Assembly (NCBI GenBank): GCA_964485795.1
Contig: CAZAJQ010000001.1
Location: forward strand, 78,014 to 142,013
Reading direction: 5' to 3'
DNA length: 64,000 nt
DNA from: an uncultured Gammaproteobacteria bacterium
GTDB taxonomy: Bacteria > Patescibacteriota > Patescibacteriia > VMEV01 > CAZAJQ01
The notes under the pieces are model-generated. The model searched no databases. It saw only the letters and a program-made list of their open reading frames with translations, and had not been told where the DNA came from. Positions 1,445-62,706 of the stretch are shown piece by piece (the stretch's first letter is position 1; the number at the start of each line of letters is the position of its first letter). The translations under genes and the position numbers were made by a program.

Positions 1445-2506
1445 TTAAAACTGCTGCAAAAATCGTATATCTCCGGAATTGAGGAGACGAATATCCGGTA
1501 TCCCGTACCTGAGAACCACGAGTCTCATCAAACCCAGCCCGAAAGCAAATCCCGAGTACTTGATATGGTCAATGCCGGCGTTTTCCAAAACTTGCGGATG
1601 AATCATGCCGCAACCCAAAGTCTCGACCCATCCGGAATGTTTGCATACTTGGCAACCTTTACCGCCGCAGATGAGGCAATCAATGTCCAGCTCAAAACCC
1701 GGCTCGACAAAAGGAAAGTAGCTCGGGCGAAGTCGCATCTGCACATCGCGCTTGAATATGCCCGACAGCATAGTCCGGAGCGTGCCGATCAAGTCCGTGA
1801 TGGAGATATTCTCATCCACGACGAATCCTTCGAGCTGATTGAGCGTATGCTCATGCGATGCGTCGGTGGCCTCATAACGGTACACGCGACCCGGAACAAT
1901 GCCGCGAAACGGAACGCCGTATTCGGTCAAAGCTCTCACCTGCATGGCCGACGTATGCGTGCGCAAAAGCAATGTATCATCGATCCAAAACGTATCATGC
2001 ATATCCCTCGCCGGATGCAAGAGAGGGATGTTGAGCGAGGTGAAATTCGCGTATTCGGAATCCACTTCCGGTCCGTCCAGCACGAGAAACCCCATGGACG
2101 TGAAGATGTCTTCGATCTCGTACTGAACCTGACTCAAAGGATGCAGATGTCCGAGCTCCTGCGGCACCATCCCCGGTAAGGTAATGTCCAATCGCTCACT
2201 CAGCCCGGCAATCGAAATCGCGGATAATTCGTCATGCTTATCCGCCAAAGCTTTTTCCAAAATCTCACGGGTTTTATTGGCGGCCGAGCCAATGGATTTT
2301 TTTTCTTCCGCGGAAAGATCTTTGATTTTTTTTAATATCTCATTGAGCTCTCCCTGTTTCCTACCCAAATATCGAGTATGAATATCCGAAAGCTCCGTCT
2401 TGGCAGCGGCTTTTTTGATCGCGAGCAGTGCATTTTTCTGGATTTCGGCAATGGATTCAAGCATAAGTATGACGGCCAGTATACCAAGGGAGGTTGGTTT
2501 TGACAA
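1445..2506 (-). CDS. pheS: phenylalanine--tRNA ligase alpha subunit
   Basis: 353-aa ORF with the class II aaRS core (FPFVEPGFELD, GLGLMRL) and a typical PheS N-terminal coiled region. Confidence 0.95.
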   Translation of the reverse strand: MSKPTSLGILAVILMLESIAEIQKNALLAIKKAAAKTELSDIHTRYLGRKQGELNEILKKIKDLSAEEKKSIGSAANKTREILEKALADKHDELSAISIAGLSERLDITLPGMVPQELGHLHPLSQVQYEIEDIFTSMGFLVLDGPEVDSEYANFTSLNIPLLHPARDMHDTFWIDDTLLLRTHTSAMQVRALTEYGVPFRGIVPGRVYRYEATDASHEHTLNQLEGFVVDENISITDLIGTLRTMLSGIFKRDVQMRLRPSYFPFVEPGFELDIDCLICGGKGCQVCKHSGWVETLGCGMIHPQVLENAGIDHIKYSGFAFGLGLMRLVVLRYGIPDIRLLNSGDIRFLQQF

Positions 2507-2540: not shown

Positions 2541-2643
2541 AGTACTTAGTTCTCAGTTCTCAGTTCTCAGTACTCAGTACTTACTGCTGAGTACTTACTG
2601 CTGAGAACTGACTGCTGTGAACTTACTGCTGAGTACTGACTAC
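2541..2643. repeat. palindromic heptanucleotide repeat array, (AGTTCTC/AGTACTC)n switching to (ACTGCTG/AGTACTT)n. Family member 1 of 3.
   Basis: Seen directly: about 14 tandem 7-nt units built around CTCAGT/ACTGAG. CTCAGTACTGAG is self-complementary. The array sits between the divergent starts of pheS and trpS. Confidence 0.8.
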
Positions 2644-5946: not shown

Positions 5947-7011
5947 TCAATATATCTTTAATAACTTATATACACGTTCTTTTACGAGAACATAGTTACT
6001 TGGAAATAAATCGGCATAGTAGAGGCTTAAATATTTGCCAAACGAATACAATGAAGTGCAGACATTATTATTAACTTTATTGCATGAAATAGTAAAATCT
6101 TCAACTATATTTGCATAGTCAACATAAGTTAATTTTAATGTCCTAATATAAGACCAATCCCCCGTTACATCATCCTCAAATATATCAGTTAATTGATCCC
6201 CTGCTACATTAATAACTTTCAAAAGTAATAATATTTTTTTTATTTCTTTGAGATCATCCAGAGAAATATAATTTGGATGTGACTGAACCCATTCAATAAG
6301 TAAAAAATAAAAAATTGCAGCAAGGGGAGTATTTGCTACAATTTGACAAGCAGAAAAGTTTTCTACATTTACTTTATTACATATTGACCTTAATTGATGA
6401 ATCTCCTGTGCTAAGTAATCATTATTTTGAAAAATTTTCTGAGACATTTTTTCTTTATAAAGTAATCTGCTCTCCCCAGCAATAATTTGCATCTTGCAAC
6501 AATTCTCTATTTCAAATACATAATATTCCTCTAAAATCTTAATTAACTGATTACGAATCAATGGCTTCCAAATTCGCGCTTTCCAGACCCACCTATTTAG
6601 GACTTCATCAATACCACCAAAATATTTAGAAATCTCTTTTTCAACTTTAATTTTTTTTCCTTGTCTCAAAAACGGGCTCCCTAATATTTTTAGATATAGG
6701 TTATCTAAACACTTATAATCATTCAATTTCATTTTATCAATTATATCGTCCAAAAGATCAAATAAAAAAATATTGTAAGATATGAATGATATTATTTTTC
6801 TCTGAGTCTCCGTGTTATCGAATAATAAAGAAAAATAAGAGGTTACTTTAGGGTACGGCTTTTTTAAAATTAGCGACTCGTGAATAAAGTTATAGGTTCT
6901 TTCTAAGATTAGCCCTTTGATTACATCCCGTTCAAGGCAAAAAAGTTCATTTTGAATTATTAAATCCACTTCAGTATTAATTTCTTCAATATTAAAATTT
7001 GCTCTTGACAT
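5947..7011 (-). CDS. hypothetical protein (354 aa) inside the low-GC island
   Basis: Long AT-rich ORF, K/N/I/Y-rich. It starts 3 nt after the stop of the upstream GAF gene (operon-like). No motif recognised. Confidence 0.55.
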   Translation of the reverse strand: MSRANFNIEEINTEVDLIIQNELFCLERDVIKGLILERTYNFIHESLILKKPYPKVTSYFSLLFDNTETQRKIISFISYNIFLFDLLDDIIDKMKLNDYKCLDNLYLKILGSPFLRQGKKIKVEKEISKYFGGIDEVLNRWVWKARIWKPLIRNQLIKILEEYYVFEIENCCKMQIIAGESRLLYKEKMSQKIFQNNDYLAQEIHQLRSICNKVNVENFSACQIVANTPLAAIFYFLLIEWVQSHPNYISLDDLKEIKKILLLLKVINVAGDQLTDIFEDDVTGDWSYIRTLKLTYVDYANIVEDFTISCNKVNNNVCTSLYSFGKYLSLYYADLFPSNYVLVKERVYKLLKIY

Positions 7012-7014
7012 ATT

Positions 7015-7908
7015 TTACAGCTTTGCTTTCAAATCTTCTTTTCGACTTTTTAAAGTTTTACTAATCACATGATATAAACTCCTTACATATAGATTATATT
7101 GTTGGGAGATACAATCAAATTCCTCTTCAAGATTCTTTAAATCCACAATACTTGCATCTTTTAATTTTGCAGAATAATTTGATATGTAGTCGGAATATTT
7201 TTCAACTTCATCAATAAAACACGCAAAAGCGTGGTTTATTTTCGTGAATTTTCGCTCAAGATTTTCATAATTATACTTTAACCCCAAGAGACTTCCTTGT
7301 AGAGAACTAAATCTTTCAATAAACTTGATATCATTATCTCCAAATTTCACCTTTCCATGCACTTGAATGACACCAAAAAATTCTCCATTACAAAATAATG
7401 GTACAGCCAATATATCTTTTATCCCTATAAACTTATTAATCCAAATCGAAAATTTTTTATTTACAATTGGAGCAATAAATTCAGAAATATCACTTCCTCT
7501 CATTTCCCTCTTATAGGACACCACATCAATAAGCTTATTTTTAACTGTGTTATCAAGTGGAAACTTATGCTTTTGGAAAGTCATCGGAAGCCTACTACTC
7601 ACCAAGACACTTTTCTTCGTTCTTGAAAAAGCAAAAGATTGCAAACAATTCTGATCTTTGAGATGAATATAAAATATTATTCCTGCGTATTTCTTCGGTA
7701 TATTCTTTACAAGCAAATCAACAACAATTTGAGCCAATTCATCAAAACTCATGTCCGTTAGGATTTCCTGAGTAATTTTTTCCAAAGCCTCCGCCAGCTT
7801 CTCGCCGGTTTGGTAACTCATGAGCTGTGACTCCTTCTCTTGGAGCAACTCTACCAGCTGAGCTTTGGTGTAATGTTGATATTTTTGCTTTTTCATAGAG
7901 TCAATCAT
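7015..7908 (-). CDS. GAF domain-containing protein
   Basis: 297 aa. DILAVPLFCNGEFFGVIQVHG is a typical GAF ligand-binding core. This is the first gene of a three-gene minus-strand unit ending in the histidine kinase. Confidence 0.65.
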   Translation of the reverse strand: MIDSMKKQKYQHYTKAQLVELLQEKESQLMSYQTGEKLAEALEKITQEILTDMSFDELAQIVVDLLVKNIPKKYAGIIFYIHLKDQNCLQSFAFSRTKKSVLVSSRLPMTFQKHKFPLDNTVKNKLIDVVSYKREMRGSDISEFIAPIVNKKFSIWINKFIGIKDILAVPLFCNGEFFGVIQVHGKVKFGDNDIKFIERFSSLQGSLLGLKYNYENLERKFTKINHAFACFIDEVEKYSDYISNYSAKLKDASIVDLKNLEEEFDCISQQYNLYVRSLYHVISKTLKSRKEDLKAKL

Positions 7909-8002
7909 ACCATATTTTCCCTCTTTTTTTGCTTTTTATGAAATCCCGTGAGATGATTCTTTTCAAGACCTTTCATCTTATTTTTTTCAATTTTCAAAAC
8001 CT

Positions 8003-11486: not shown

Positions 11487-14201
11487 ATGAAGAGAACATG
11501 TTTTGTACTGAATTTGTTGTTCTTGGTGCTTATCCCTCATGTGGCTTCCGCTTCCGGATACCTGAATATCACGGCGCGCGATCAAAGCGGGAAAAACCTC
11601 ACGCCCATCATTTACTTGAGCGGGATATTCAAAGGGTTTCCTCCTCAGCTGATGACCTTGCCGGCGGGAAATTACTCTCTCAAATTGAGCGTCATCAACG
11701 GCTATACGGAGCAATTTACCAATCCGCAAACCATTACGATTTCGGAAGGCAAAACTCTGACCGTTGATCTGCTGTACACCTCCACAAACCTCGGGACACT
11801 CAATGTCTCGGCCGTGGATACGACGGGAAAATTCTTAGGCGCGCCGTTTTCTCTTGCCGGAACGTCAAAAGGGTCTACCGCGCAATCGCTCTCCCTGAAT
11901 TCCGGCACCTATCGCGTTTCGTTTGGAACTCTTGCCGGATACTCGCTGATCAGCCAAAAAGATGTGGATGCTACGGTGTTACCCGGCATCCCCACCTCGA
12001 TCAAGGCGACTTACCAGATCCTCATGAGCTTTCAAGACGTCACCGGTCCGGATATCGTCTTTCATTCTCCCCTGCCTTTTGGCACCGTGAATCAAAGCAG
12101 CATCCTGATCAAAGGATCCATCACGGATCAAAGTCGCATTACCGCGTTTTCCGTGAACAATGTATCTTCCATCAACATTGATGCCGGAAACTGGGAATGC
12201 GGAGTGAACCTCGCGTACGGGACGAATTCCATCGCGTTCAACGCTCAAGATGAATATGGAAACAGCACGGTGAAGTACCTCATTCTCGTGTATTCGCCTC
12301 CGGACACGACGGCTCCTCTCATCACGATTGACTCGCCGTCAAACAATACCGCGCTCACCACGGATACGGCGGTCATCAAAGGAACGATCAGCGACGCCAA
12401 TGCCATCACGTCTTTTACGCTCAATGGCACACTCGGCGTGCTGCCAAACGGCAATAATTGGCAAGTGACTCACAAGCTCATGGAAGGAATCAACCTTCTC
12501 AATTTCCGAGCTGTCGATGAGTACAACAACATTTCCGAAAAGCAGCTGATCCTCTCATATACGAGACCCTTGCCGCCTTCGGGAAACGTCGAAGCCGTCA
12601 TTTCGGATGCCAATGTCACCTATCTGGTGCAGGAAGACAATGAATCCAATGCCAACGTCAAAAAAAATGACTTGCAGTGGAAAACCGCTAATCTCGTTTC
12701 CGAAACCGTACTGGTGCGTCAGGGAAGATTGATACGATTTTCCGGTTACGGGAAAAGCGCCACCGTATCTCCGATCACCGCCTATCAATGGTATGTCATG
12801 GATAACGGGAAAAAAATCGTGCTGTCGGGCAATGCCAGCTTCTCAAGTCGATTTTTACCCTATATCAATTACCAAAGCACGAATGCGGTGCTGACGGTGT
12901 TCTTCGAAGTGCGGGAAAATGCAAACACATGGTCATATCCGGCTTCCATCACCATCACGTTCAAAAGATTCGTGAAATTGTATCCGGTTTTTACGGAACA
13001 TTGGATCGCATCCGGAAATCGCTATGGAGATACCGGCGAAGATCCTAAAAACAATACGCATCTCAAATACTTCGGATCCAAAATCAATGATAATTTCGCC
13101 ATTGATTTCAACTACGGTTCCGATCGAGATGATTATCAGCGAATCCTGGTATGTCCCTTCAAAAAGGGTCAAATAACCAAGGCGGACAACTACAGCGGAT
13201 GGGGTCGTCGAGTCGGAATTACGCCGCTGGATGACTTTGACCAGCCCATTACCGATCATCTTGGAAATCCATTTCTGTACATGATCTGCCACTGTGCGGT
13301 CGTTTCCGTTTCCGAAGGTGATATCGTCTTTCTCGGCAATGAACTCGGCACTTGCGGAGCCACCAATGTCACGCAGCATAGCAATGCCACAGACAATGAC
13401 ATGAAACCCCATGTTCACGGTGCTCTCTATACCGTACGCGGCGATTGGCTGGTCAGTGTGGCGCAAGAGCCGCTGTTTCTCAATCCTAGCGATGACGAAA
13501 AAGTCGTGGATATGCTCATGGACAAGGAAACTCCGTATGAGTCACAAAACACGTTAAAAAGAAATCCGGGTATCATCGTTGTGGATGATGGCGCGGCATC
13601 CGGACTCGTCTATGATCCGCTCTACGTATATTTCGGTTACAATCGAAGCCGATATTTTTCCGAAACCTCGGTGACAAGCTCGACGGTTGAGCACGTTTGG
13701 ACGCCGACCGTCGCAAGCTCGGGATTTTACATGATCGAAGTCCTTATCCCCTATCTCAAATCCGACTCTGAAAAAGCCGTTTATGAAATCTTCACGTCCG
13801 AAGGAAAGATATATACGGCTCAAGTCAATCAGAATCTGTATGTGAACGAATGGGTGAGATTGAAAACTTCGGATCATCAATTCACTTTTTACTTCTCGAA
13901 AGGAGACAAAAACTTCGTCAAACTCACGAATAAGACGGGTGAATCCGGAAAGACACTCAGCTTTGACGCCATTCGCTTCATACAAATCAGTTCCAGCGAA
14001 TTTGGCGGCGGAAATGACGCGACCGGATCAAGCACGGACACTCGGCAAAAAAATCGCGGAGGATGTTACATGAATGCAAATGTCACATGCGACTCTCGCA
14101 ATCAAAGTGAATCGCTTGAGGACATCTTCGAAAACTTTTTTGCTCTCTATCTGCCTCTCGCACTTTTGATCTTTACTATGTACATTGTGAAAAAACGTTA
14201 A
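11487..14201 (+). CDS. large secreted protein (904 aa) with PEGA-like repeats, two tandem Ig-like repeats and a C-terminal TM anchor plus basic tail
   Basis: AAGGAG RBS 8 nt upstream. Signal peptide. Repeats SPLPFGT...IKGSITD / SPSNNTALT...IKGTISD. C-terminus FFALYLPLALLIFTMYIVKKR. Confidence 0.75.
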   Translation: MKRTCFVLNLLFLVLIPHVASASGYLNITARDQSGKNLTPIIYLSGIFKGFPPQLMTLPAGNYSLKLSVINGYTEQFTNPQTITISEGKTLTVDLLYTSTNLGTLNVSAVDTTGKFLGAPFSLAGTSKGSTAQSLSLNSGTYRVSFGTLAGYSLISQKDVDATVLPGIPTSIKATYQILMSFQDVTGPDIVFHSPLPFGTVNQSSILIKGSITDQSRITAFSVNNVSSINIDAGNWECGVNLAYGTNSIAFNAQDEYGNSTVKYLILVYSPPDTTAPLITIDSPSNNTALTTDTAVIKGTISDANAITSFTLNGTLGVLPNGNNWQVTHKLMEGINLLNFRAVDEYNNISEKQLILSYTRPLPPSGNVEAVISDANVTYLVQEDNESNANVKKNDLQWKTANLVSETVLVRQGRLIRFSGYGKSATVSPITAYQWYVMDNGKKIVLSGNASFSSRFLPYINYQSTNAVLTVFFEVRENANTWSYPASITITFKRFVKLYPVFTEHWIASGNRYGDTGEDPKNNTHLKYFGSKINDNFAIDFNYGSDRDDYQRILVCPFKKGQITKADNYSGWGRRVGITPLDDFDQPITDHLGNPFLYMICHCAVVSVSEGDIVFLGNELGTCGATNVTQHSNATDNDMKPHVHGALYTVRGDWLVSVAQEPLFLNPSDDEKVVDMLMDKETPYESQNTLKRNPGIIVVDDGAASGLVYDPLYVYFGYNRSRYFSETSVTSSTVEHVWTPTVASSGFYMIEVLIPYLKSDSEKAVYEIFTSEGKIYTAQVNQNLYVNEWVRLKTSDHQFTFYFSKGDKNFVKLTNKTGESGKTLSFDAIRFIQISSSEFGGGNDATGSSTDTRQKNRGGCYMNANVTCDSRNQSESLEDIFENFFALYLPLALLIFTMYIVKKR

Positions 14202-17654: not shown

Positions 17655-17915
17655 TCATGAAGGAACTTTTATTGCCTTCACTCCATAGAGAATCAACCCT
17701 TCCTCGCTTTTTGAAATCTTTCTCTTCATCAATGTTACCTCCTGCCCGATTTTCACGTCTTCACCATCCGCAACCGTAACCATGATCCGCTCATGGGAAT
17801 CGGCCAGCTCAATCAAGGCAACCGTATACGGCGTTTCGGCAACCATTCCGCTTGGAGCTGAAAAGAGTTTTGAAAACGTCAAAACCTTTCCTTTTTTCCC
17901 GAGGAAAGCCCGCAT
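17655..17915 (-). CDS. DUF35-type OB-fold protein, the thiolase/HMG-CoA synthase partner. It lacks the usual N-terminal Zn ribbon.
   Basis: MRAFLGKKGKVLTFSKLF...PYTVALIELADSHERIMVTVADGEDVKIGQEVTL matches the DUF35 OB-fold. The ORF-track extension to 18047 contains no Cys and overlaps the repeat element, so the ATG at 17913-17915 is preferred. Confidence 0.65.
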   Translation of the reverse strand: MRAFLGKKGKVLTFSKLFSAPSGMVAETPYTVALIELADSHERIMVTVADGEDVKIGQEVTLMKRKISKSEEGLILYGVKAIKVPS

Positions 17916-17990
17916 TTTTTTATGCTGCCGCCATACAAAAGGCGGGGTATGAAAAAGTGTCATAGAAAAAATACGTAATGGTATGAATTT

Positions 17991-18260
17991 CCTCCCCTTG
18001 GACAAGGGGAGGTGGCCGAAGGCCGGAGGGGTGAGCTTCGTGAACATGGCGTTTACCGTGTCCGAAGCGGAGGGGTGAGCTTCGTGAACATGGCGTTTAC
18101 CGTGTCCGAAGCGAAGGGGTGAGCTCCGCGAAAATGGAGCTTACCGTGTCCGAGCCGGAGGCCTGGCTCTGGCAGGGGGGTGCTTCATGAGTAAGTGCCT
18201 ATTCAATGTTCCCGCCCCACCCCTCTGCCCTTCGGGCATCTCCCCTTGTCCAAGGGGAGA
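17991..18260. repeat. composite repeat element: a 22-nt hairpin CCTCCCCTTGGACAAGGGGAGG (17991-18012), a 3 x 44-bp tandem direct repeat (18025-18156; copies 1 and 2 identical, copy 3 diverged), and an inverted copy of the hairpin TCTCCCCTTGTCCAAGGGGAGA (18239-18260)
   Basis: Read directly from the sequence. Unit: GGAGGGGTGAGCTTCGTGAACATGGCGTTTACCGTGTCCGAAGC. Confidence 0.85.
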
Positions 18261-18270
18261 ATACGCAACG

Positions 18271-19416
18271 TTATACCTTACCCAAAAGATGCATCACACA
18301 TGTCGCGCCGCTGCCGCCCACATTATGCGTCAATGCATATTTCACGTCCGGAGCCTGCCGCTTCCCCGCCTGCCCTCGAAGCTGCCATGCGGCTTCCGCG
18401 ATCTGTTTCACGCCGGTGGCGCCGACCGGATGACCGCACGCTTTCAAACCTCCGGACGTATTGAACGCCGGCTTCATATCGGAATGATTCATCATTTTCA
18501 TAAGCAACGCGCCACCTTCTCCTTTGTTTGCAAACCCGATATCCTCAAGCGCCATAAGACCCGCAATGGAAAAACAATCATGCACTTCGACAAGATCAAT
18601 GTCCGCCGGCTTCAAATTCGCGGTAGCGAATATTTTACGGCTGGCTTCTTGCGTTGATTTCAGACCGATCAAAGTTTTTCTGCCCGATAGCGAAAGCGTA
18701 TCGCAGGCGACTTCACTTGCGACTATGCAAACATCATTATCGGTTTTTCGCGCTTCCTCTGCCGACAATATCACGGCGCCCGCTCCGTCTGAAATCGGAG
18801 AGCACTCAAGCAAGGTCAAAGGGTCTGCGATCATCGAGCTTTCCAAAACGTCGTTAACTGAAATTTCTTTTTGAAACTGCGCCAACGGATTTTTCGCACC
18901 ATTCCGATGCGAAATGATCGAAGCTGCGGCCAGCTGCTCGCGTGTCGTTCCAAACGTTTCCATATGCTCCCTTGCCATCATGGCGTACAAAGCCGGAAAA
19001 GTAGCGCCGGCGAGACGTTCTTCGCTTGACGCGGCCTGCATCAAAAATGAAGCGACGGTCTCGGCCGAAAAGTCCGTCATCTTCTCCACGCCCACTACCA
19101 ACACTTTTTTATACTGCTTCGCCTCAATCGAAGTAACCGCCCGATGCACCGCAAGTCCTCCGGACGCGCAGGCTCCTTCGACGCGAAAACATGGGATGTT
19201 CACGCCGTATTGTTCACAGAGCAAGGCTCCCGCATGACTTTGCATGGCCGTTTCTCCGCAAAGCATCGTTCCGACGAAACACGCCTCAATCTCTGAAACG
19301 TTCATGCCGGAATCAAGCAACGCCAAATCAACGGCTTCTCGAAAAAGATCTTCAAAGCTTTTGTCCCAAATTTCTCCAAAACGCGTCATGCCGATGCCGG
19401 AGATGATCGTGTACAT
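18271..19416 (-). CDS. archaeal-type acetoacetyl-CoA thiolase (thiolase-like/SCP-x family)
   Basis: 381 aa; GMTRFGE...CASGG...NTSGGL...GHPVGATG thiolase signatures. Adjacent to HMGCS and DUF35 as in archaea. Confidence 0.9.
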   Translation of the reverse strand: MYTIISGIGMTRFGEIWDKSFEDLFREAVDLALLDSGMNVSEIEACFVGTMLCGETAMQSHAGALLCEQYGVNIPCFRVEGACASGGLAVHRAVTSIEAKQYKKVLVVGVEKMTDFSAETVASFLMQAASSEERLAGATFPALYAMMAREHMETFGTTREQLAAASIISHRNGAKNPLAQFQKEISVNDVLESSMIADPLTLLECSPISDGAGAVILSAEEARKTDNDVCIVASEVACDTLSLSGRKTLIGLKSTQEASRKIFATANLKPADIDLVEVHDCFSIAGLMALEDIGFANKGEGGALLMKMMNHSDMKPAFNTSGGLKACGHPVGATGVKQIAEAAWQLRGQAGKRQAPDVKYALTHNVGGSGATCVMHLLGKV

Positions 19417-19424
19417 AGGGGAAG

Positions 19425-19540
19425 AGGTAGGAGTAAGTAGTCAATTCTCAGCTCTCAGGAGTAAGTTCTCAGTGCGTAAGCATAACTGCAAAACGTCGAT
19501 TCGGCAGCTGAGTACTGAGAACTGACTGCTGACGCACTTG
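19425..19540. repeat. GAGTAAG/CTCAG(T) heptamer-palindrome repeat, family member 2 of 3
   Basis: ...gagtaagtagtcaattctcagctctcaggagtaagttctcagtgcgtaag...gctgagtactgagaactgactgctgacgcacttg, between thiolase and HMGCS. Confidence 0.6.
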
Positions 19541-19544
19541 TTCC

Positions 19545-20582
19545 CTAACGCGACAATTTGCCGCGCATTTTTACGTACTGCGGATATGAAACGTATTTTT
19601 TCTCTCGAATCTGCTCCTGCAACGTATGATTTCTCTTGAAATTTTCAATATTCTTCGTGACTTCAAAAATAAAACTGTCCGAGCCCGAGCCCGAGCCGTA
19701 GGAAGTCATGAGGATTGATTCCCCCGCTTTCGCATGATCCAAAACGTTCGCAAGGCCGAGCATGCTGCATGCCGAGTAGGTATTTCCTATCTCGGATACG
19801 ATCATCCCCGCACGCAGCTGCTTTTCGGAAACTCCGAGCGTTTTTGCGGCCATTTGGGGAAATTTACCGTTGGGCATATGAAAAATCACATGATCGAAAT
19901 CGGAAACGCTTTTACCGTTTTTTTTCAAAATCTTTTTGGTCGCGGATACGACATGCTCGAAGTATGCGGGTTCACCGGTGAATCTCCCTCCGTGAGCGGG
20001 GTACTCGGACTTTGGCGCTCGCCAAAAATCGGGCGTATCGGAAGCCATGGAAAACGTATCTTTCATCTCGCAGATGATTTCATCTTTTTTATTTCCAAAA
20101 AGAAACGCGGCCGCGCCGCTCGCCGCCGTATACTCGAGCATATCCCCCGGTGCTCCTTGAGCCGTGTCAGCGCCTACGGCAAAGCCATACGCTATCATAT
20201 TCGAGCGAACCATTGAGGCAACGATTTGCATGGCCGCGGTTCCGGCTTTGCACGCGAATTCCAAGTCTGCGGAAAAATAATCTCGCATGCCGAGAGCCTG
20301 TCCCACGAGCGTTCCGCTTGGCTTCACGGCGTACGGATGACTTTCGGAGCCGATGAACATCGCTCCGATATCTGCGGACGATATCGAAACGCTTTCCAAA
20401 GCGTATATGGCCGCGCTCAAAGCCAAAGTCACCGTATCTTCGTCCGCGGACGCTACGGCTTTTTCTCGTAAAAGAAGTCCTCTCTTGATGTTTTCAGGAT
20501 CTTTCCCGTGCGCTTGGGCTATTTCATCAGCGGTAATGCGAAACATGGGAATAAAAGATCCATAGGTGATGATACCGGACAT
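19545..20582 (-). CDS. hydroxymethylglutaryl-CoA synthase (short archaeal type)
   Basis: 345 aa; active-site Cys context DLEFACKAGT; HMGCS/FabH fold motifs. Confidence 0.9.
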   Translation of the reverse strand: MSGIITYGSFIPMFRITADEIAQAHGKDPENIKRGLLLREKAVASADEDTVTLALSAAIYALESVSISSADIGAMFIGSESHPYAVKPSGTLVGQALGMRDYFSADLEFACKAGTAAMQIVASMVRSNMIAYGFAVGADTAQGAPGDMLEYTAASGAAAFLFGNKKDEIICEMKDTFSMASDTPDFWRAPKSEYPAHGGRFTGEPAYFEHVVSATKKILKKNGKSVSDFDHVIFHMPNGKFPQMAAKTLGVSEKQLRAGMIVSEIGNTYSACSMLGLANVLDHAKAGESILMTSYGSGSGSDSFIFEVTKNIENFKRNHTLQEQIREKKYVSYPQYVKMRGKLSR

Positions 20583-20680
20583 GAACGTGAAAATTTATCT
20601 TTTGATAAACAGCCTGTCCCGCATATCGGTGAACGAAGGATGACAAGGATAATTCCGGACTTATGGCACTGATATCTTCG

Positions 20681-21829
20681 CTACGAACGTTCACGGTAAC
20701 TCTTATGCACACGAGCCAAATCCTGCGAGGCGAGGCATGCAAGCAGAGATATTTCGCCGGCCAAGACGGCGCCGGCGATGATTTCAACGAAGGCGTGATG
20801 AGCGCTGCCAGGGTTACCCTCGTCGATGGTGATTCCCATCATGGCCAGCGATTCACTTTGCTTGGGAAGTCCGGTGCCTCCGCCCACGACCCCGCATACC
20901 ACGCTCGGCAAAAAAACATTGACATAGACGCCGCCGTCCTTTTCCTTCTCGACGGATGTGATCCCGAGACTTCCTTCCACGACATGCGCCATATCCTGCC
21001 CCGTCGCCAAAAAAATCGCGGAAATGATGTTTGCATAATGCGCATTCATGGCCATCGAACCGGCGGCAAGCGATCCGGCAACGATCTTGCTCTGATACAC
21101 GTCAAAAAATTCATCGGCATCGGTCTTGAGCACGTTTTTCAAAACATCCGCCGTCAATACGACCTCGGCGTTCACGGAATATCCGCGGCCTTCAAGCATA
21201 TGGGTGAATGCCGCCTTTTTATCGCTGCAATAATTTCCCGACAATGAGCGACATCGCACTTTTGTTTCGGGTTCGATGATGTGAGAAATGAGATGGTCGC
21301 ACGCGATCACCGCCATATTCATCCCCATGGCATCTTTGGGATCAAAGGTGAATTTCACAAAAACATTTCTCCCGATCTGCTTGCAAAAAATGCCGACGAG
21401 CTCCAAAAATCGGCTCGTCTTGCGAATTTCAGCGCCGAATCTCTCTTTGTTTTTCATGATAAAATCCATGAAATCCTTTCCCTGCCGCTGATGCAGCACT
21501 CGAAAAACCGGAGCGCGCGTGATGCCGACATGATGCGCCCTCACAGTCGCTCCTCCGGACAAGGTGATCGCTTTGCACCCGCGATTGACACTGGCGACGA
21601 GGCACCCCTCGGTCGTGGACAGCGTCAATATCCTTTCGTCGTTGACGATGTCTCCGTTGATTTTCAGCGGCCCGGCGATGCCGAGCGGAACGCTCACCGC
21701 GCCGATCATATTTTCGCAGTTCTTTGTCGCGCATCCGAGATACTCGTCGCTTCCGGCAAGAATCTTCGCGGCACTCACGCGACCGTACGATAATATTTTT
21801 TCTAATTTTTCACGGCTCTTTTCCGACAT
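20681..21829 (-). CDS. HMG-CoA reductase, class I-like catalytic domain
   Basis: 382 aa; ENMIGAVSVPLGIAGPL and DAMGMNM motifs. Confidence 0.9.
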   Translation of the reverse strand: MSEKSREKLEKILSYGRVSAAKILAGSDEYLGCATKNCENMIGAVSVPLGIAGPLKINGDIVNDERILTLSTTEGCLVASVNRGCKAITLSGGATVRAHHVGITRAPVFRVLHQRQGKDFMDFIMKNKERFGAEIRKTSRFLELVGIFCKQIGRNVFVKFTFDPKDAMGMNMAVIACDHLISHIIEPETKVRCRSLSGNYCSDKKAAFTHMLEGRGYSVNAEVVLTADVLKNVLKTDADEFFDVYQSKIVAGSLAAGSMAMNAHYANIISAIFLATGQDMAHVVEGSLGITSVEKEKDGGVYVNVFLPSVVCGVVGGGTGLPKQSESLAMMGITIDEGNPGSAHHAFVEIIAGAVLAGEISLLACLASQDLARVHKSYRERS

Positions 21830-22839
21830 AGGTGATGGCTGTAAAGCTGTTGACTTCCGAGACTTTTGAGATCTTTTGATCCGGTGGCGAACATGGTGAT
21901 TTTGAGTTCCAAAATCAATCGTTCGATGGTTTTCATGACTTGTTCATGGGATATTACCGCGCTTTGCAAAAAAGGCAAGGCGCAAGACGCATACTTGGCT
22001 CCGAGCGCAATGCATTTGGCGATGTCAAGCCCGGTGCGCACTCCCCCTCCGGCTATCACGTCCACACCGCTCACCCTTGACGCCTCAAGCACGGCAATGG
22101 GAGTCGGGATTCCGAAATTTCGAAACGTCTCTCCGATATCGCGATAATCGCTCCGTCGCTTGCCTTCGATCCACGCCCATGAAGTTCCGCCGCTTCCGGA
22201 AACATCGATGATCGAGATGCCTATATCTTTTAAACGTTTCACCGTTGATCGTGAAATCCCGGCACCGACTTCTTTCGCCATGAAGGGAATATCGAGGTGA
22301 GCGACAACGCGCTCCATTTTTTCCAGCAAACCAAAATAATTTTTATCTCCTTCAAACTGAACGGCTTCTTGCAAAGGGTTCAGATGAAAACACAGAGCAT
22401 CGGCTTTGACAATATCAATGATTTTCTTTATATCTTCGAGTGTCACTCCATAGTTGAGCTGCACCGCTCCGAGATTGGCGAAAACGGGAATGGTGGGTGC
22501 GAATTTTCTCACGACCGCAAAGGTTTTCTTTGCGTCTTCTTTTTCCAGCATGATGCGCTGCGATCCCACGCCCATGGGCAATCTCAGCTTTTCAGCCGCT
22601 TGCGCCAAATTCGCGTTGATCGTCTCCCCGTGTTGTGTTCCTCCGGTCATGGATCCTATAATAAGGGGGGCGGAAATTTTTTTTCCCAAAAAAATCGTTT
22701 CCGCGGAGATTTCGTCAAAATTTATTTCCGGAAGCGCATTGTTTTCAAAAAAAAGATCATCAAAATATCGCTGCTTGGTATCAACTTCTTCCGAAAGACA
22801 AATATCAATATGATGTTTTTTCCTTTCCGATAACGACAT
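21802..22839 (-). CDS. fni: type 2 isopentenyl-diphosphate isomerase (FMN-dependent IDI-2)
   Basis: Begins MSLSERKKHHIDICLSEEV, with GSMTGG and GGVRTGLD TIM-barrel motifs. The ORF-track N-terminal 231 aa (to 23532) are a shadow of mvk on the other strand, so the start is set at 22839. The 3' end overlaps the HMGR start by 28 nt. Confidence 0.85.
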   Translation of the reverse strand: MSLSERKKHHIDICLSEEVDTKQRYFDDLFFENNALPEINFDEISAETIFLGKKISAPLIIGSMTGGTQHGETINANLAQAAEKLRLPMGVGSQRIMLEKEDAKKTFAVVRKFAPTIPVFANLGAVQLNYGVTLEDIKKIIDIVKADALCFHLNPLQEAVQFEGDKNYFGLLEKMERVVAHLDIPFMAKEVGAGISRSTVKRLKDIGISIIDVSGSGGTSWAWIEGKRRSDYRDIGETFRNFGIPTPIAVLEASRVSGVDVIAGGGVRTGLDIAKCIALGAKYASCALPFLQSAVISHEQVMKTIERLILELKITMFATGSKDLKSLGSQQLYSHHLCRKRAVKN

Positions 22840-23760
22840 ATGGCTCTTGCACTCGCCCCCACAAAACTCATTCTCATCGGTGAACATGCGGTTGTGTACG
22901 GATATCCGGGACTTTCTTTGCCTTTGCCGCTTCTCACCACCGCCGAAGTGCTCCATCATGGTGAGCCCGACATTCATCTGGAAGCGAATTTCAAACTTGC
23001 GGAAGAAGTGGTCGACTGGCTCCACAAGCTCCTCGACCCGCTTTTCGATATTTTTCCAAATAAAAACAATCTCCTCGTCCGTCTTCATGTGACGGCCGAG
23101 GCAGGTTCGGGGATGGGCGTATCCGCAAGCGTTGCCGTGGCTTTGATACGCGCATTCTTTGATTATTATAATAAAAAACTGGACCAAAAGACACTTTTTG
23201 ATCTGGCTCGGCAGATGGAAACCGTCTCCCACGGAAAACCAAGCGGAATCGATCATACCACGATCATTGAGAATGAACCACTTTTTTTCAAAAAAATCAA
23301 CGGAAAGCTTTCCATTCGAAAAATTCCAAAACTTTTCAATCCCATGATTTTCAAACATTGCGCCATACTCTTCAGCGGAAAACCTATCGAAAGCACGAAA
23401 ACGATGGTTGAGCTCGTGAAAACGCGTCATGAACGCGATGAAAACTTGGTCAATGAAACGTTTGAGAACATCGAAAATCTCACCTATGCGCTTTTTACCA
23501 GCCTCATGATTTCCGACGAAACGCTTTTTCACGAGACGCTCGCTTACGCCGGAGATCAGCTCACGGCATTGGGAGTCGTCTCACCGACCGCTTCCCGCTT
23601 GCGAAAAAAGCTTGAAACGCTTGGAGTCGCTTCCAAAATTTCCGGAGCCGGAGGAGCATGCGCCGGATCGGGTATCCTTCTCTGCCATCATGAAGATCAA
23701 AACATCATCACGGATTTCGCGAACCGAAACGATATCAAGTTTTGGACTCCATGGGCTTGA
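22840..23760 (+). CDS. mvk: mevalonate kinase (GHMP kinase)
   Basis: APTKLILIGEHAVVYG, SGMGVSAS and KISGAGGGA motifs. Its ATG directly abuts the IDI-2 start codon on the other strand (CAT|ATG). Confidence 0.9.
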   Translation: MALALAPTKLILIGEHAVVYGYPGLSLPLPLLTTAEVLHHGEPDIHLEANFKLAEEVVDWLHKLLDPLFDIFPNKNNLLVRLHVTAEAGSGMGVSASVAVALIRAFFDYYNKKLDQKTLFDLARQMETVSHGKPSGIDHTTIIENEPLFFKKINGKLSIRKIPKLFNPMIFKHCAILFSGKPIESTKTMVELVKTRHERDENLVNETFENIENLTYALFTSLMISDETLFHETLAYAGDQLTALGVVSPTASRLRKKLETLGVASKISGAGGACAGSGILLCHHEDQNIITDFANRNDIKFWTPWA

Positions 23761-24547
23761 TGAGACTTCCGATGCACGGTGCTCCTTTCAACGCCGAAAA
23801 AAATCGTTCCGGTTCATTGCCGTTGATGATGAGCGTTTGCACTCCAACGTCGGCGAGCGCGAGAGCGGTTTCAAGTTTGTGTCGCATGCCGCCGGTCACA
23901 TCCGCGACCGTCGGTTCATGAATAAAGCGAAAAATCTCTTTCTGATTTTCTCTCGTGATGACGGGAACGACCTCGCCGCGGTCATCCGTGATCCCGTCCC
24001 TATCCGAAAGCATCAGAATGGTTTTGACGGGATATTTTTTCGTCTCCGTCCATGATTGTGCCAAATATTCAAGCGTGATTTCATTTGAATTGATGCTCAC
24101 TCCGACGGTTTTATCCACGATGACATCCCCGTAGACGACGGGCAGAAAACCTTTTTCCAAAGCTCCGCAAAGAACATCATCAAACAATGCGACGATATTT
24201 TTTTTGTCGTTCACGGTAAACCCGGAAGGAGCGAAAGACATGGCCGGAATATTCGCGAGAAGCAGCTCTTTCATCACCAGCCGATTGAGTCGAGCGACCG
24301 CATCATGCACAAGACAAGCCCCGAGTCTCCCGTACGCGTCGTGAAAACCGTTCGCGGTTCCAAACTTTTTTGCGGCCGGATGACCGAAAGACCCGGCTCC
24401 ATGACCCAAAACAAGAGAAACGTCGGGATAAGCCTTCATAAACCGCGACAATACACCGGCCAAATTTCGAACGGATTCTTCTCGAAACACTTCGACGTCT
24501 GATTTGTCCGTGATGACGCTTCCTCCCAGTTTAATAAGAATCATCAT
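23735..24547 (-). CDS. isopentenyl phosphate kinase (amino-acid kinase family)
   Basis: LIKLGGSVITDK and GHGAGSFGH. 270 aa. The 3' end overlaps the mvk 3' end convergently by 26 nt. Confidence 0.85.
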   Translation of the reverse strand: MMILIKLGGSVITDKSDVEVFREESVRNLAGVLSRFMKAYPDVSLVLGHGAGSFGHPAAKKFGTANGFHDAYGRLGACLVHDAVARLNRLVMKELLLANIPAMSFAPSGFTVNDKKNIVALFDDVLCGALEKGFLPVVYGDVIVDKTVGVSINSNEITLEYLAQSWTETKKYPVKTILMLSDRDGITDDRGEVVPVITRENQKEIFRFIHEPTVADVTGGMRHKLETALALADVGVQTLIINGNEPERFFSALKGAPCIGSLIKPMESKT

Positions 24548-24555
24548 ACAAAATT

Positions 24556-25575
24556 TTATTCGTTGACGGCTTCCAAAACGATTTTCGCTCCTTCCGCCGG
24601 CTTATTTTCGATCAGGGTAATCACCCCCGGCACCGACGCAAGCTCATTCTTGACGTTCAAAACGCAATCGCCTTCGCAAATGACGTGAACATTGGATCCG
24701 GCGTCAATCGTCGCATAGGCGAGTATTCCTTTTTCACGAAGCTCCCTGACGCGATCGAGCACTCTCATGGTGGAATCGTTCCAATAAAATATCGGGGGCT
24801 TTTGCGTCATGGCGATGCAATGCATGCAGACGCTGTCTTCTTCGATCACGGTTCCCAAAGCGCGAATGTCTTTTTTTTCTATCGCCTCCCGGCATCTTCG
24901 TAATCGATCCGGTATCGCGGATATCCTCGAGGGAAAGTGCGGACTGGTCTCGGCGGCTCGGTGTCCGTCGCTTGAAGACACTTTCTTTTTATCCACGGCG
25001 ACCACGGCCACGATATCGGCCAGATCCCAATGCTCATGCGTCGCGATTTACACGGAATGACAAGTATCGCGGCAATAATCCATGCAAGATTCCACAAAAC
25101 CGCCGTGACTGGATCGCATGGCGGACACCGAGCCGCCGAGACGAATGAGCTCGGAAAGTCTTTTCCTGTCATTCACGTATTCATCCAGTCCGTACGCTTG
25201 ACACAAAGCGAGCGTCAAAGCCGCAAATCCCGAGGCCGATGATGCGATACCGACATCGGAGGGGAAATTGTTTTCCGAACGGATATTCGCGAATCTCAAA
25301 TCGTTTCCCAACGCTCGAATTCGACCGATATGCTCAAACATCAAACGCTGCTTGATATCGCCTTCGTTTTTGACCCGTTGAAATTCTTTCCCGAAAAATT
25401 TCACCCTCACGTCATCGTCAATAGATTTTTCCATGATTTCAACGCTCGTCACCGTGAAACAATTCGAAAGGGTCATGGAAATGGTATTGGTATAAGGCAA
25501 AAAAATGGTCTTGTCTTTTTGACCCCAATATTTGATAAACGCGATATTTGCCGGTGCCCATGCCGTCGCTTTCAT
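24556..25575 (-). pseudogene. diphospho-/phospho-mevalonate decarboxylase homologue (GHMP family) interrupted by one in-frame TAA at 25048-25050. Seen as two same-frame ORFs, 175 aa and 151 aa.
   Basis: N-terminal part APANIAFIKYWGQKD...SSASGFAAL...RLGGSVSAMRS. C-terminal part ...KKVSSSDGHR...PPIFYWNDSTMRV...YATIDAGSNVHVIC. Both ORFs share a frame (25575, 25050 and 25011 are all 0 mod 3). The 12 codons between them (IATHEHWDLADI) have no stop. Confidence 0.8.
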
Positions 25576-25584
25576 ATGTGCTTT

Positions 25585-26655
25585 CTAAACGTCTCGATGT
25601 ATCATAAAATCAGCCAAATCTTTGAAAAATCGAAACCCTTCTTCCGAAAAAAATTTTGGATTCAAGTGCTCGATCGCTTCTTTGTGAAGTTTTTTCGCCA
25701 ACCTTTTCGAATACTGCAGCGAACCGGTTTCTTCCACGATCTTTTTGACCTTTCGGGCATCGTCAGCCGTAATATCCGGATTTCCCAAAGTCTTTTCAAA
25801 AATTTTTCGTTGCGACGGCGAGCAATTTTGCAAAGCCTTGACGATGAGCAGGGTTCTTTTTCCCTGTCTGAGGTCGGAAAGCACGCTTTTTCCGATTTTT
25901 TTTTCGTCTCCGAACAGTCCCAAAATATCATCCTGCAATTGAAACGCCACACCCACCGGAATCGCGTATGCGGTGAGATTTTCCATCACTTTTCGCGGCG
26001 CGTTCGCAAGCATGGCTCCGATATGCAGAGGCGCTTCCACCGAATACTTTCCCGTCTTGTACGTATGCACTTTCATGACATGATTGCGTGTGGCATCTTC
26101 ACGCATTTCAAGAAAAATGTCCAGCATTTGACCGATATTCACTTCTTTGATCACGTCCAAAAGATGCAGCATAAGATGATTTTTCACGTCCGAAGAAAAT
26201 TTCGTCTTGAGCACCGCCTCTTTTGCCACTTCGGAAAGCAAAATGCCGGCGATGATGCCCATGGAATTTCCGAAATGTTCTCGATTTTTGGCCGCGTAAT
26301 TTTTCCGATTCATCTTGCTGTACCGATAATGTATCGTGGGACATCCGCGTCGTTTCGTGTCCCGATCCATGATATCGTCATGAATCAATAAAAAACTGTG
26401 GATCAGCTCCATAGCCATCGCGACTTGAAAAACGTCTTCATCGTGTCCCTTACCTCCGCAGGCGAAGTATCCGAAATACACCAAAGCCCCGCGCATCTTT
26501 TTTCCTTTTCCCACGCAAATATCCTTGATATGGCGAAAAAGCTCGGCTCCCAGTGGTGTAATGAGACGCGCTTCTTCCATCTTTTCATTCAAATACGTCT
26601 CAAGATCGGCATCCATCTTTTTTTTGAAATCTGCCAATTGATCGGGTATCTTCAT
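25585..26655 (-). CDS. polyprenyl diphosphate synthase (FPP/GGPP synthase family)
   Basis: LIHDDIMD and FQLQDDILG aspartate-rich motifs. 356 aa. Confidence 0.9.
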   Translation of the reverse strand: MKIPDQLADFKKKMDADLETYLNEKMEEARLITPLGAELFRHIKDICVGKGKKMRGALVYFGYFACGGKGHDEDVFQVAMAMELIHSFLLIHDDIMDRDTKRRGCPTIHYRYSKMNRKNYAAKNREHFGNSMGIIAGILLSEVAKEAVLKTKFSSDVKNHLMLHLLDVIKEVNIGQMLDIFLEMREDATRNHVMKVHTYKTGKYSVEAPLHIGAMLANAPRKVMENLTAYAIPVGVAFQLQDDILGLFGDEKKIGKSVLSDLRQGKRTLLIVKALQNCSPSQRKIFEKTLGNPDITADDARKVKKIVEETGSLQYSKRLAKKLHKEAIEHLNPKFFSEEGFRFFKDLADFMIHRDV

Positions 26656-32270: not shown

Positions 32271-32370
32271 TACTGAGAACTGAGTACTGAGTACTGAGTA
32301 CTGAGCACTGAGTACTGAGCACTGAGAACTGAGCACTGAGTACTGAGAACTGAGTACTCTGTTCTCAGCG
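32271..32370. repeat. (TACTGAG)n heptanucleotide array, ~14 units with A/C/T variation, ending in an inverted unit. Family member 3 of 3.
   Basis: tactgagaactgagtactgagtactgagtactgagcactgag...tactctgttctcag, between the ligA start and the end of the pilus-operon tail gene. Confidence 0.85.
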
Positions 32371-62490: not shown

Positions 62491-62578
62491 AGAGTAAGAT
62501 TAAGAATAAGTTCCTAGAGTGTTCACGAGGTCATGATAACAGATTTACTGAACCTGTGCGTGTTCGCTTGAGCAAATA

Positions 62579-62665
62579 CGGAGAGGGTGGGATTCGAACC
62601 CACGGAACCCTTGCGGGCTCTCCGGTTTTCAAGACCGGTGCTTTCAACCGCTCAGCCACCTCTCC
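62579..62665 (-). tRNA. tRNA-Ser (anticodon UGA)
   Basis: The reverse complement folds as GGAGAGG acceptor, anticodon arm CCGGT-CTTGAAA-ACCGG (U33, UGA, A37), long variable arm, T-arm GTGGGTTCGAATCCCAC, discriminator G. No encoded CCA. Confidence 0.9.
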
Positions 62666-62673
62666 ATTTCATA

Positions 62674-62706
62674 GAGTCTAGAATCTAGAGCCTAGATTCT
62701 AGACTC
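62674..62706. repeat. perfect 15-bp inverted repeat GAGTCTAGAATCTAG-agc-CTAGATTCTAGACTC, followed by further TCTAGA copies. It lies 9 nt upstream of tRNA-Ser(UGA).
   Basis: Read directly. TCTAGA occurs 5 times in 62674-62730. Confidence 0.85.

Follow-up and report, generated by a model that had tools for sequence, protein, structure and literature searches.

Intergenic heptanucleotide arrays with predicted hairpins in a patescibacterial genome: probable simple sequence repeats at unrelated gene junctions

A 64,000-nucleotide stretch of a patescibacterial genome (assembly GCA_964485795.1, contig CAZAJQ010000001.1, positions 78,014 to 142,013; hereafter the window, at its full length) carries short tandem arrays of a seven-nucleotide unit, the NACTGAG/CTCAGTN family, at three sites: between pheS and trpS (site 1), between the genes for HMG-CoA synthase and thiolase (site 2), and between a pilin-like open reading frame (ORF) and ligA (site 3). 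These arrays exemplify a class of repeats that is widespread in bacterial phyla and are an ordinary representative of a known kind. With a probability of roughly 0.6, they are intergenic heptanucleotide simple sequence repeats (SSRs) that arose by slippage and inverted duplication and are tolerated as structured spacers. The finding adds a compact-genome lineage of the Candidate Phyla Radiation (CPR) to the bacteria carrying intergenic heptanucleotide microsatellites, and it corrects the view of the ACTGAG repeat as private to this genome. The more useful part of the analysis is the comparison with relatives, in which such arrays appear to have been caught arising in otherwise tight gene junctions and in which two unrelated repeat hairpins occupy one junction in two lineages.

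Three arrays in gaps between genes

Direct reading of the sequence finds heptamer arrays at all three sites, each in a gap between confirmed genes, and the neighbours named in a preliminary description of this DNA are upheld by NCBIfam matches: pheS and trpS at site 1, HMG-CoA synthase and thiolase at site 2, and ligA and the pilin-like ORF at site 3. The arrays measure 103 nt, about 105 nt and 98 nt, respectively, and differ in layout, site 1 having two abutting arms, site 2 two arms and a unique spacer, and site 3 one arm. The sequence CTGAGNACTGAG occurs 15 times in the window against 0.02 occurrences expected, and an autocorrelation scan over periods 4 to 12 finds long arrays in the window at period 7 only. 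Together with the repeats reported by Tandem Repeats Finder (TRF), this excess bears out the earlier classification of the sites as intergenic microsatellites. The self-complementary core that had been proposed, CTCAGTACTGAG, is absent from the window, where just GAGTACTC is present, once, at 32352; the commonest unit is GAGTACT, which holds the palindrome AGTACT. The parts of the arrays are as follows.

2541..2582, minus strand: left arm of site 1, six units reading ACTGAGN on the minus strand, towards pheS
2576..2643, plus strand: right arm of site 1, a 14-nt compound unit (AGNACTT + ACTGCTG) in 4.7 copies
19430..19473, minus strand: thiolase-side arm of site 2, about six degenerate units
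19474..19506, no strand: non-repeat spacer of site 2, 32 nt, loop of the predicted hairpin
19507..19534, plus strand: HMG-CoA synthase-side arm of site 2, GCTGAGT ACTGAGA ACTGACT GCTGACG
32271..32358, plus strand: main array of site 3, 12.6 units of [T/A/C]ACTGAG (TRF period 7, score 134)
32356..32368, minus strand: inverted end of site 3, ACTCTGTTCTCAG, which pairs with the final units of that array

Site 1 (2541-2643) separates the divergent genes pheS, on the minus strand, and trpS, on the plus strand. Its left arm reads AGTACTT, three times AGTTCTC, AGTACTC and AGTACTT on the plus strand and contains four matches to ACTGAG on the minus strand; TRF assigns period 7, 5.9 copies and 91% matches to 2541-2581. 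The right arm, for which TRF gives period 14, 4.7 copies and a score of 97 at 2576-2641, stops 10 nt upstream of the trpS ATG (2654). The two arms are 76% complementary across 41 nt, and the variants of AGNACT stand in mirror order between them (T, A, A, (A), T, counted outwards from the centre).

Site 2 (about 19430-19534) lies between the stop codon of the HMG-CoA synthase gene and the start codon of the thiolase gene and is not reported by TRF, being too degenerate and below the threshold of that program. In operon sense, that is, on the minus strand, its thiolase-side arm reads ACTGAGA ACTTACT CCTGAGA GCTGAGA ATTGACT ACTTACT and stops 13 nt upstream of the thiolase ATG (19416). The HMG-CoA synthase-side arm adjoins the stop codon and has the reverse orientation within the operon transcript. 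Site 3 lies in a spacer of 142 nt, comprises 12 consecutive ACTGAG matches and ends 29 nt from the ATG of ligA; in the minus-strand transcript that would lead from the pilus-operon ORF into ligA, its units appear in the reverse orientation, as CTCAGTN. Its inverted repeat spans 13 nt, is 92% complementary and has zero gap between the arms. A figure of 10 to 14 units, given earlier for every array, fails for site 2, where about six and about four units surround the spacer. A switch of strand partway through the array does not describe site 3, which runs in one direction save for its last 13 nt or so (32356-32368).

Among the 22 matches to the hexamer ACTGAG in the window, 18 fall inside the three arrays, and as a dispersed single copy the hexamer shows no enrichment, with four matches outside the arrays where about 13 would be expected over the full window. 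No further ACTGAG array was found in about 16 kb of flanking sequence (about 7 kb on the left, L001, and 8.5 kb on the right, L518), the survey covering about 80 kb of the genome in all. With a TCTAGAN array at 62672 included, heptamer arrays occur about once in every 20 kb. The latter (62672-62706) consists of five TAGANTC units with the palindrome TCTAGA, is situated 6 nt upstream of a tRNA-Ser(tga) gene (62578-62666, minus strand) and is predicted to form a perfect 15-bp hairpin of -23 kcal/mol.

Recurrence of the unit and of control heptamers

The preliminary description had also taken the repeat family to be specific to this genome. A scan for four ACTGAGN units, with one genome per species, contradicts this: the four-unit array is found in at least 120 stretches from over ten phyla as well as in 36 viral contigs. 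Among the matches listed, Acidobacteriota are the most frequent, and Chloroflexota, Planctomycetota, Verrucomicrobiota, Bacteroidota, Cyanobacteria, several proteobacterial classes, Gemmatimonadota, Actinobacteria and others are represented; they include isolates and closed chromosomes such as the chromosome of Egbenema sp. and Fulvivirga imtechensis AK7.

Such recurrence could be read as the sign of a conserved pan-bacterial ACTGAG element. This reading was rejected in view of the frequencies of control heptamers and of the unrelated heptamer arrays found at the same loci. Four-unit scans of viral contigs with three composition-matched permutations of the unit gave 79 (AGTCAGN), 20 (CAGGATN) and 8 (GATGCAN) matches, compared with the 36 for ACTGAGN. 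With five fixed bases, ACTGANN and AGTCANN each yielded more than 70 stretches and ATCGANN yielded 70; a period-8 version of the ACTGAG core yielded 11. Many period-7 arrays with unrelated units also occur at the loci that carry ACTGAG arrays. Because the controls are about as common in viral contigs, the recurrence of the ACTGAG unit across phyla needs no special explanation: heptamer arrays of almost any sequence are common, and the ACTGAG unit is not special.

A palindromic core is likewise no general requirement, since the commonest variant in other phyla, ACTGAGG, is free of palindromes. A palindrome within the unit is confined to the CPR examples (AGTACT, TCTAGA and AGCT). In the other genomes, 84 of the 104 arrays that could be classified are intergenic by rough ORF calls, and about 10% of arrays have an inverted partner inside 150 nt.

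Predicted hairpins

Folds were computed for RNA from whichever strand is the expected template product, that is, in the presumed sense of transcription. The predicted folding energies are -53.4 kcal/mol for the plus-strand RNA of site 1 (z -7.4), -45.0 kcal/mol for the whole spacer of site 2 (z -4.35, or -4.4 when rounded) and -52.7 kcal/mol for the minus-strand RNA of site 3 (z -4.9). According to these models, all three sites can form long imperfect hairpins, in agreement with what had been proposed from the letters. Owing to the palindrome AGTACT in the commonest unit, an array that runs in one direction, like that of site 3, can pair with itself. A scan for intrinsic terminators, which combine a G+C-rich stem-loop with a U-tract downstream, found none at site 1, 2 or 3, and Rfam 15 assigns none of its families to them; the matches that reach a family's gathering score in the window are two tRNA-Ser genes only.

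Other assemblies and related genomes

The three intergenic sequences are identical in the metagenome-assembled genome GCA_016204025.1 ('Parcubacteria group bacterium') and in Logan assemblies made independently from as many as four sequencing runs. This identity effectively refutes an artefact of assembly or sequencing, to which short repeats are in principle prone and for which no specific support was found; moreover, the arrays are shorter than a read, and isolates and closed genomes carry arrays of a similar kind. No variation in length was seen in the three to five further assemblies, which is a weak test, as the flanks are about 100% identical and the same clone in all of them leaves little power to detect length polymorphism.

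Comparison over longer distances is restricted to one junction. The nearest homologues are only 59% (HMG-CoA synthase) and 55% (LigA) identical, and of the three sites the ligA junction alone can be compared with orthologous positions. The relatives in question are Parcubacteria that conserve the order pilus operon, ORF, ligA, gatC and gatA. Where the spacer of the window measures 142 nt, ORF and ligA overlap in L521 and are separated by 1-14 nt in L515, L523, L516 and L517; in L522, 38 nt precede ligA, after a different gene. The same junction in L514 carries a hairpin of 69-71 nt composed of four AGCTNNN units that a loop separates from four complementary ones; the hairpin begins at the stop codon (TAG-CT...) and has a predicted energy of -34.8 kcal/mol (z -4.95). 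This hairpin is missing from L515, whose flanks are 93-99% identical to those of L514, and likewise from the close relative L523. The presence of such arrays is specific to the lineage; as judged from these comparisons, repeat hairpins appear to arise or to be lost rapidly within the clade, with every genome having a unit of its own, and the ORF/ligA junction appears to have acquired a repeat hairpin twice, independently. The comparison of L514 with its relatives indirectly supports variation over longer times.

Arrays with units of other lengths occur in the same relatives. In L516, an inverted array of 8-nt units (TTAGCTNN in 4.5 copies, a loop and the complement) lies at 790-883 between pilM and the next pilus gene, with a predicted energy of -39.5 kcal/mol (z -5.3); in L514, the two genes overlap and have no spacer. 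In L522, inverted arrays built from the 10-nt unit AGGTTGNNNN and from its complement, at 12130-12219 and 13141-13210 flank gatC and a gene of the 23S_rRNA_IVP family, about 900 nt apart.

These observations bear on the main rival explanation, which is also the more novel one, namely that the hairpins are selected RNA or DNA structures acting at certain junctions as operon insulators that would dampen read-through, guide RNase cleavage or shield the upstream mRNA, in the manner of the REP (repetitive extragenic palindromic) stem-loops in operons of E. coli, with the repeats as mere raw material. It seems unlikely on balance, yet it has more in its favour than any other alternative considered here. 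Strong hairpins are predicted at all three sites on the transcribed strand; different hairpins stand at the identical ORF/ligA junction in the window and in L514; and the inverted 8-mer hairpin of L516 occupies a gap between pilus genes. In addition, G-U pairs number 18 in the sense folds and 3 in the antisense folds of six elements, counts that are not independent because the repeats themselves give rise to them, and on the sense strand the stem of site 3 leads into a short AUUUUG. However, none of the sites passes the terminator scan, close relatives have no spacer at the same junction, the genes concerned are unrelated housekeeping genes, and the coincidence at the junction involves just two lineages. 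Nor does the sense strand have the greater stability throughout: over the six elements, fold energy favours sense in three and antisense in two and is tied in one, and with this mixed outcome the comparison was discarded as a sign of selection at the RNA level. A broader version, according to which this clade of Parcubacteria recurrently recruits tandem-repeat hairpins of any unit, grown independently in different lineages, at the same operon junctions to uncouple or process transcripts, is doubtful. Should the recurrence reflect selection, the arrays would offer a simple system for studying the birth of hairpins via slippage and template switching; should recurrent recruitment be true, slippage and inverted duplication would let reduced genomes make RNA structural elements quickly.

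Non-autonomous mobile elements, similar to REP/REPIN or miniature inverted-repeat transposable elements (MITEs) and moved by a transposase encoded elsewhere in the genome, constitute an improbable alternative. Two compound segments are shared between sites: the 17-mer CTGAGAACTGACTGCTG is exact at 2601-2617 and 19515-19531, and the 20-mer CTGAGNACTTACTSCTGAGA, with two degenerate positions, recurs at 2587-2606 (plus strand) in site 1 and at 19453-19472 (minus strand) in site 2. Inverted arms, strictly intergenic location and the occurrence of a whole hairpin in one close relative and not in others would also suit mobility. Yet the sites have three differing architectures and share neither a length nor defined ends, no flanking target-site duplications are visible at any of them, and the sole non-repeat core, the spacer of site 2, is single-copy in the window even at three mismatches. 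The array in L514 begins inside the stop codon, as though seeded locally, and the compound 25-mer common to sites 1 and 2 has no match in JGI metagenomes. The proposal that the arrays are REP-like is not supported: they have no constant unit with defined ends, the hexamer is not dispersed, and neither a transposase nor a RAYT-like gene was detected among the larger ORFs of the window or, with Pfam lists included, among those inspected in about 16 kb of flanking sequence.

Signals near the flanking genes

Promoter-like sites were detected for pheS and ligA only, and the promoter scan found no convincing candidate for trpS.

2478..2506, minus strand: pheS promoter-like site, TTGTCA, 17 nt, TG-TATACT, 10/12 matches, the sole one in the region

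Since this site lies between the array and the start of pheS, site 1 is placed upstream of the promoter and outside the pheS leader. If the trpS promoter lies upstream of 2541, the whole hairpin of site 1 would belong to the trpS leader. The promoter-like site directly before ligA derives its -35-like TTCTCA from the last unit of site 3. The arms on the trpS and thiolase sides have the forward (ACTGAG) orientation, and no Shine-Dalgarno motif is present there.

Few genes of the window have a Shine-Dalgarno motif. Many start codons are preceded by ...CCT or ...CT (at gene starts throughout, e.g., 2464, 32241, 45074 and 61187), and promoter-like -10 boxes stand just 6-13 nt upstream of the ATG of pheS and of ligA. 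The proximity of these boxes to the ATG suggests that near-leaderless mRNAs may be common in the organism.

Two explanations assign the arrays a role in the expression of their neighbours. In the first, they would be cis-regulatory leader elements resembling the TAACTGA repeats of Beggiatoaceae, with forward units close to start codons bound by a ribosomal or RNA-binding protein of the S1, Csp or CsrA type that would govern the translation of genes without a Shine-Dalgarno site. The forward arms end 10 nt (trpS) and 13 nt (thiolase) before an ATG without Shine-Dalgarno motif, the core ACTGA is common to the unit and TAACTGA, and in other genomes forward arrays are about twice as frequent as reverse ones between co-directional genes (38 vs 19, from rough ORF calls and non-independent loci). 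This is nevertheless a distinctly improbable account: most genes of the window lack a Shine-Dalgarno motif whether they bear repeats or not, site 3 is reversed and ends 29 nt short of the ATG of ligA, the pheS promoter-like site separates the left arm of site 1 from pheS, hairpin folding is predicted to sequester the forward arms, and of about 60 genes in the window just 3 have repeats.

In the second, the arrays would be contingency loci in which gain or loss of 7-nt units shifts promoter spacing or leader length and so tunes expression, as for hmw1A. Tandem 7-nt units are prone to slippage, site 1 lies between divergent genes, units in the CTCAGTT orientation resemble -35 hexamers (TTCTCA being the -35 of the ligA promoter-like site), and heptanucleotide phase variation is documented (PMC8262952). 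It is hard to credit such a role when the sequence is identical in every available assembly, when interruptions and imperfections stabilize the arrays, and when the neighbours are housekeeping genes (for tRNA synthetases, DNA ligase and mevalonate enzymes) rather than genes for surface structures or host interaction.

Further features of the window

The mevalonate operon that contains site 2 harbors one more structured insertion, unrelated to the first, in the spacer from the thiolase stop codon to a DUF35/OB-fold gene (17964-18270). It features a 44-nt tandem repeat in 3.1 copies (18024-18161) bracketed by copies of the palindrome CCCCTTG-NN-CAAGGGG at 17994-18009 and 18242-18257, and the whole stretch of 313 nt is predicted to fold at -150.6 kcal/mol (z -8.1). 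The surrounding region, 17655-26655, encodes archaeal-type mevalonate genes in a genome labelled Parcubacteria: HMG-CoA synthase, thiolase, DUF35, HMG-CoA reductase, type 2 isopentenyl diphosphate (IPP) isomerase, an IPK-like gene of the amino-acid kinase family and polyprenyl synthase. The nearest homologues of the HMG-CoA synthase are archaeal, at no more than 59% identity. In L521, MVD-like, IPK-like and IDI2 genes adjoin gatA. Elsewhere in the window, the G+C content falls to 0.30 at 6001-8000 compared with about 0.47 in the remainder, and 5947-7908 comprises two ORFs of 354 and 297 aa without a match in Pfam or NCBIfam; this segment may be a horizontally acquired island.

Origin of the arrays

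The explanation preferred here, origin by slippage and inverted duplication, would proceed as follows. An array would grow in place through slipped-strand mispairing at replication, neighbouring units that have diverged would sometimes be re-amplified together as 14-mers, and an arm would occasionally be copied in inverted orientation via fold-back or template switching, a process that can generate hairpins (PMC8794818). Inverted copying may be favoured here because the commonest unit holds the palindrome AGTACT, and the mirror order of the unit variants at site 1 is the product expected from inverted duplication of an array that had already diversified. The outcome would be a spacer of 100-140 nt within an otherwise tight gene junction, probably transcribed in the trpS leader and in two long co-directional strings of genes and folding into an imperfect hairpin. 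The arrays would thus be tolerated, fast-evolving by-products of replication rather than a dedicated sequence-specific element, and their main effect would be that of a structured spacer that undoes the tight coupling of neighbouring cistrons and provides a stem at which RNA could be processed or protected.

Several points weigh against this explanation. The exact compound segments common to sites 1 and 2 are hard to reconcile with independent slippage and point to shared ancestry, to gene conversion or to copying from one site to another. Two different hairpins at one operon junction in two lineages could reflect selection rather than neutrality, and the excess of G-U pairs in the modelled sense strands hints at constraint at the RNA level. 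The uniform array lengths in the further assemblies, albeit those of a single clone, and the limited coverage of about 80 kb of the genome also count on this side. If the recurrence at the junction does not reflect selection, the arrays would be neutral markers that may serve strain typing and potential trouble spots for assembly.

Comparison with known repeat systems

REPs are imperfect palindromes of 20-40 nt and constant sequence that occur in hundreds of dispersed copies in Proteobacteria and are mobilized by RAYTs. The arrays resemble REPs, REPINs and bacterial interspersed mosaic elements (BIMEs) in being intergenic and hairpin-forming and in lying within operons, where REPs can stabilize upstream mRNA. 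Assignment to REP/REPIN was rejected, as no constant unit exists beyond the heptamer, the architectures vary between sites and ACTGAG is not enriched outside the arrays. Assignment to MITEs was rejected on account of the unique spacer of site 2, the differing layouts and the lack of visible flanking duplications at the three sites. The short tandemly repeated repetitive (STRR) sequences of heterocystous cyanobacteria are built of the heptamers CCCCAGT, TTGGTCA or CAACAGT; they differ from the present arrays in unit, and the organism studied here is labelled Parcubacteria/Patescibacteria.

Among short-period tandem arrays of Patescibacteria, those of the TIGR-Tas system are transcribed and frequent in CPR bacteria (PMC12045711). 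TIGR arrays have units of about 36 nt in which two repeats of 8-12 nt alternate with variable spacers of 9 nt, and they adjoin a gene with a Nop domain (PMC12045711). Assignment of the arrays of the window to this system was rejected: they repeat every 7 or 14 nt, vary at a single position, and have as neighbours pheS, trpS, mevalonate genes and ligA.

In Haemophilus influenzae, tandem heptamers lie between promoter and start codon of hmw1A and hmw2A, where the number of units could tune expression (PMC8262952). These arrays are perfect, belong to adhesin genes and have a documented variation in length, whereas those of the window are imperfect, adjoin housekeeping genes and are invariant among the assemblies compared.

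The TAACTGA repeats of Beggiatoaceae, Cyanobacteria and Bacteroidetes share the core ACTGA and the intergenic location (MacGregor 2015, PMC4679880). They are often in forward orientation a few nucleotides upstream of starts that lack a Shine-Dalgarno motif, are mixed with other heptamers, and differ between strains by indels in steps of 7 nt (PMC4679880). A forward array near a start is found at trpS (10 nt) and thiolase (13 nt), but not at ligA (reverse, 29 nt) or pheS. In the same register, the unit of the window is G[T/A/C]ACTGA and shares at best 5 of 7 positions with TAACTGA, so that the two units are not the same. The arrays described here also comprise 6-13 units, compared with mostly 2-6 for TAACTGA, and they have inverted arms and, at one site, the reversed orientation.

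In Xanthomonas (GGGAATC) and Nostoc (GGGGA(T/C)T), intergenic heptamer arrays of 2-26 units have been described that differ in length and sequence between close species (Rehm et al. 2015, PMC4692102). Some of them form inverted pairs and possible stem-loops or cruciforms, like the arrays of the window. Their units are G-rich and form quadruplexes, whereas the present unit is free of G-runs and would pair in the Watson-Crick manner via the palindrome AGTACT.

The arrays of the window can be compared with the long heptanucleotide SSRs, which are alike in their head-to-tail arrangement, an occurrence beyond chance, a mostly intergenic location and a phylogenetically scattered distribution (Mrazek 2007, as relayed in PMC4679880 and PMC4692102). 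According to the same survey (Mrazek, Guo and Shah 2007, as cited in PMC4679880), units of seven nucleotides are the most abundant class of long SSRs in most genomes, and polymerase slippage is the origin proposed for long SSRs (as relayed in both papers). The survey is statistical and, as relayed there, covers neither an ACTGAG unit nor Patescibacteria nor an inverted hairpin architecture. The arrays of the window have two properties of the class, tandem 7-nt copies beyond chance and a location between genes.

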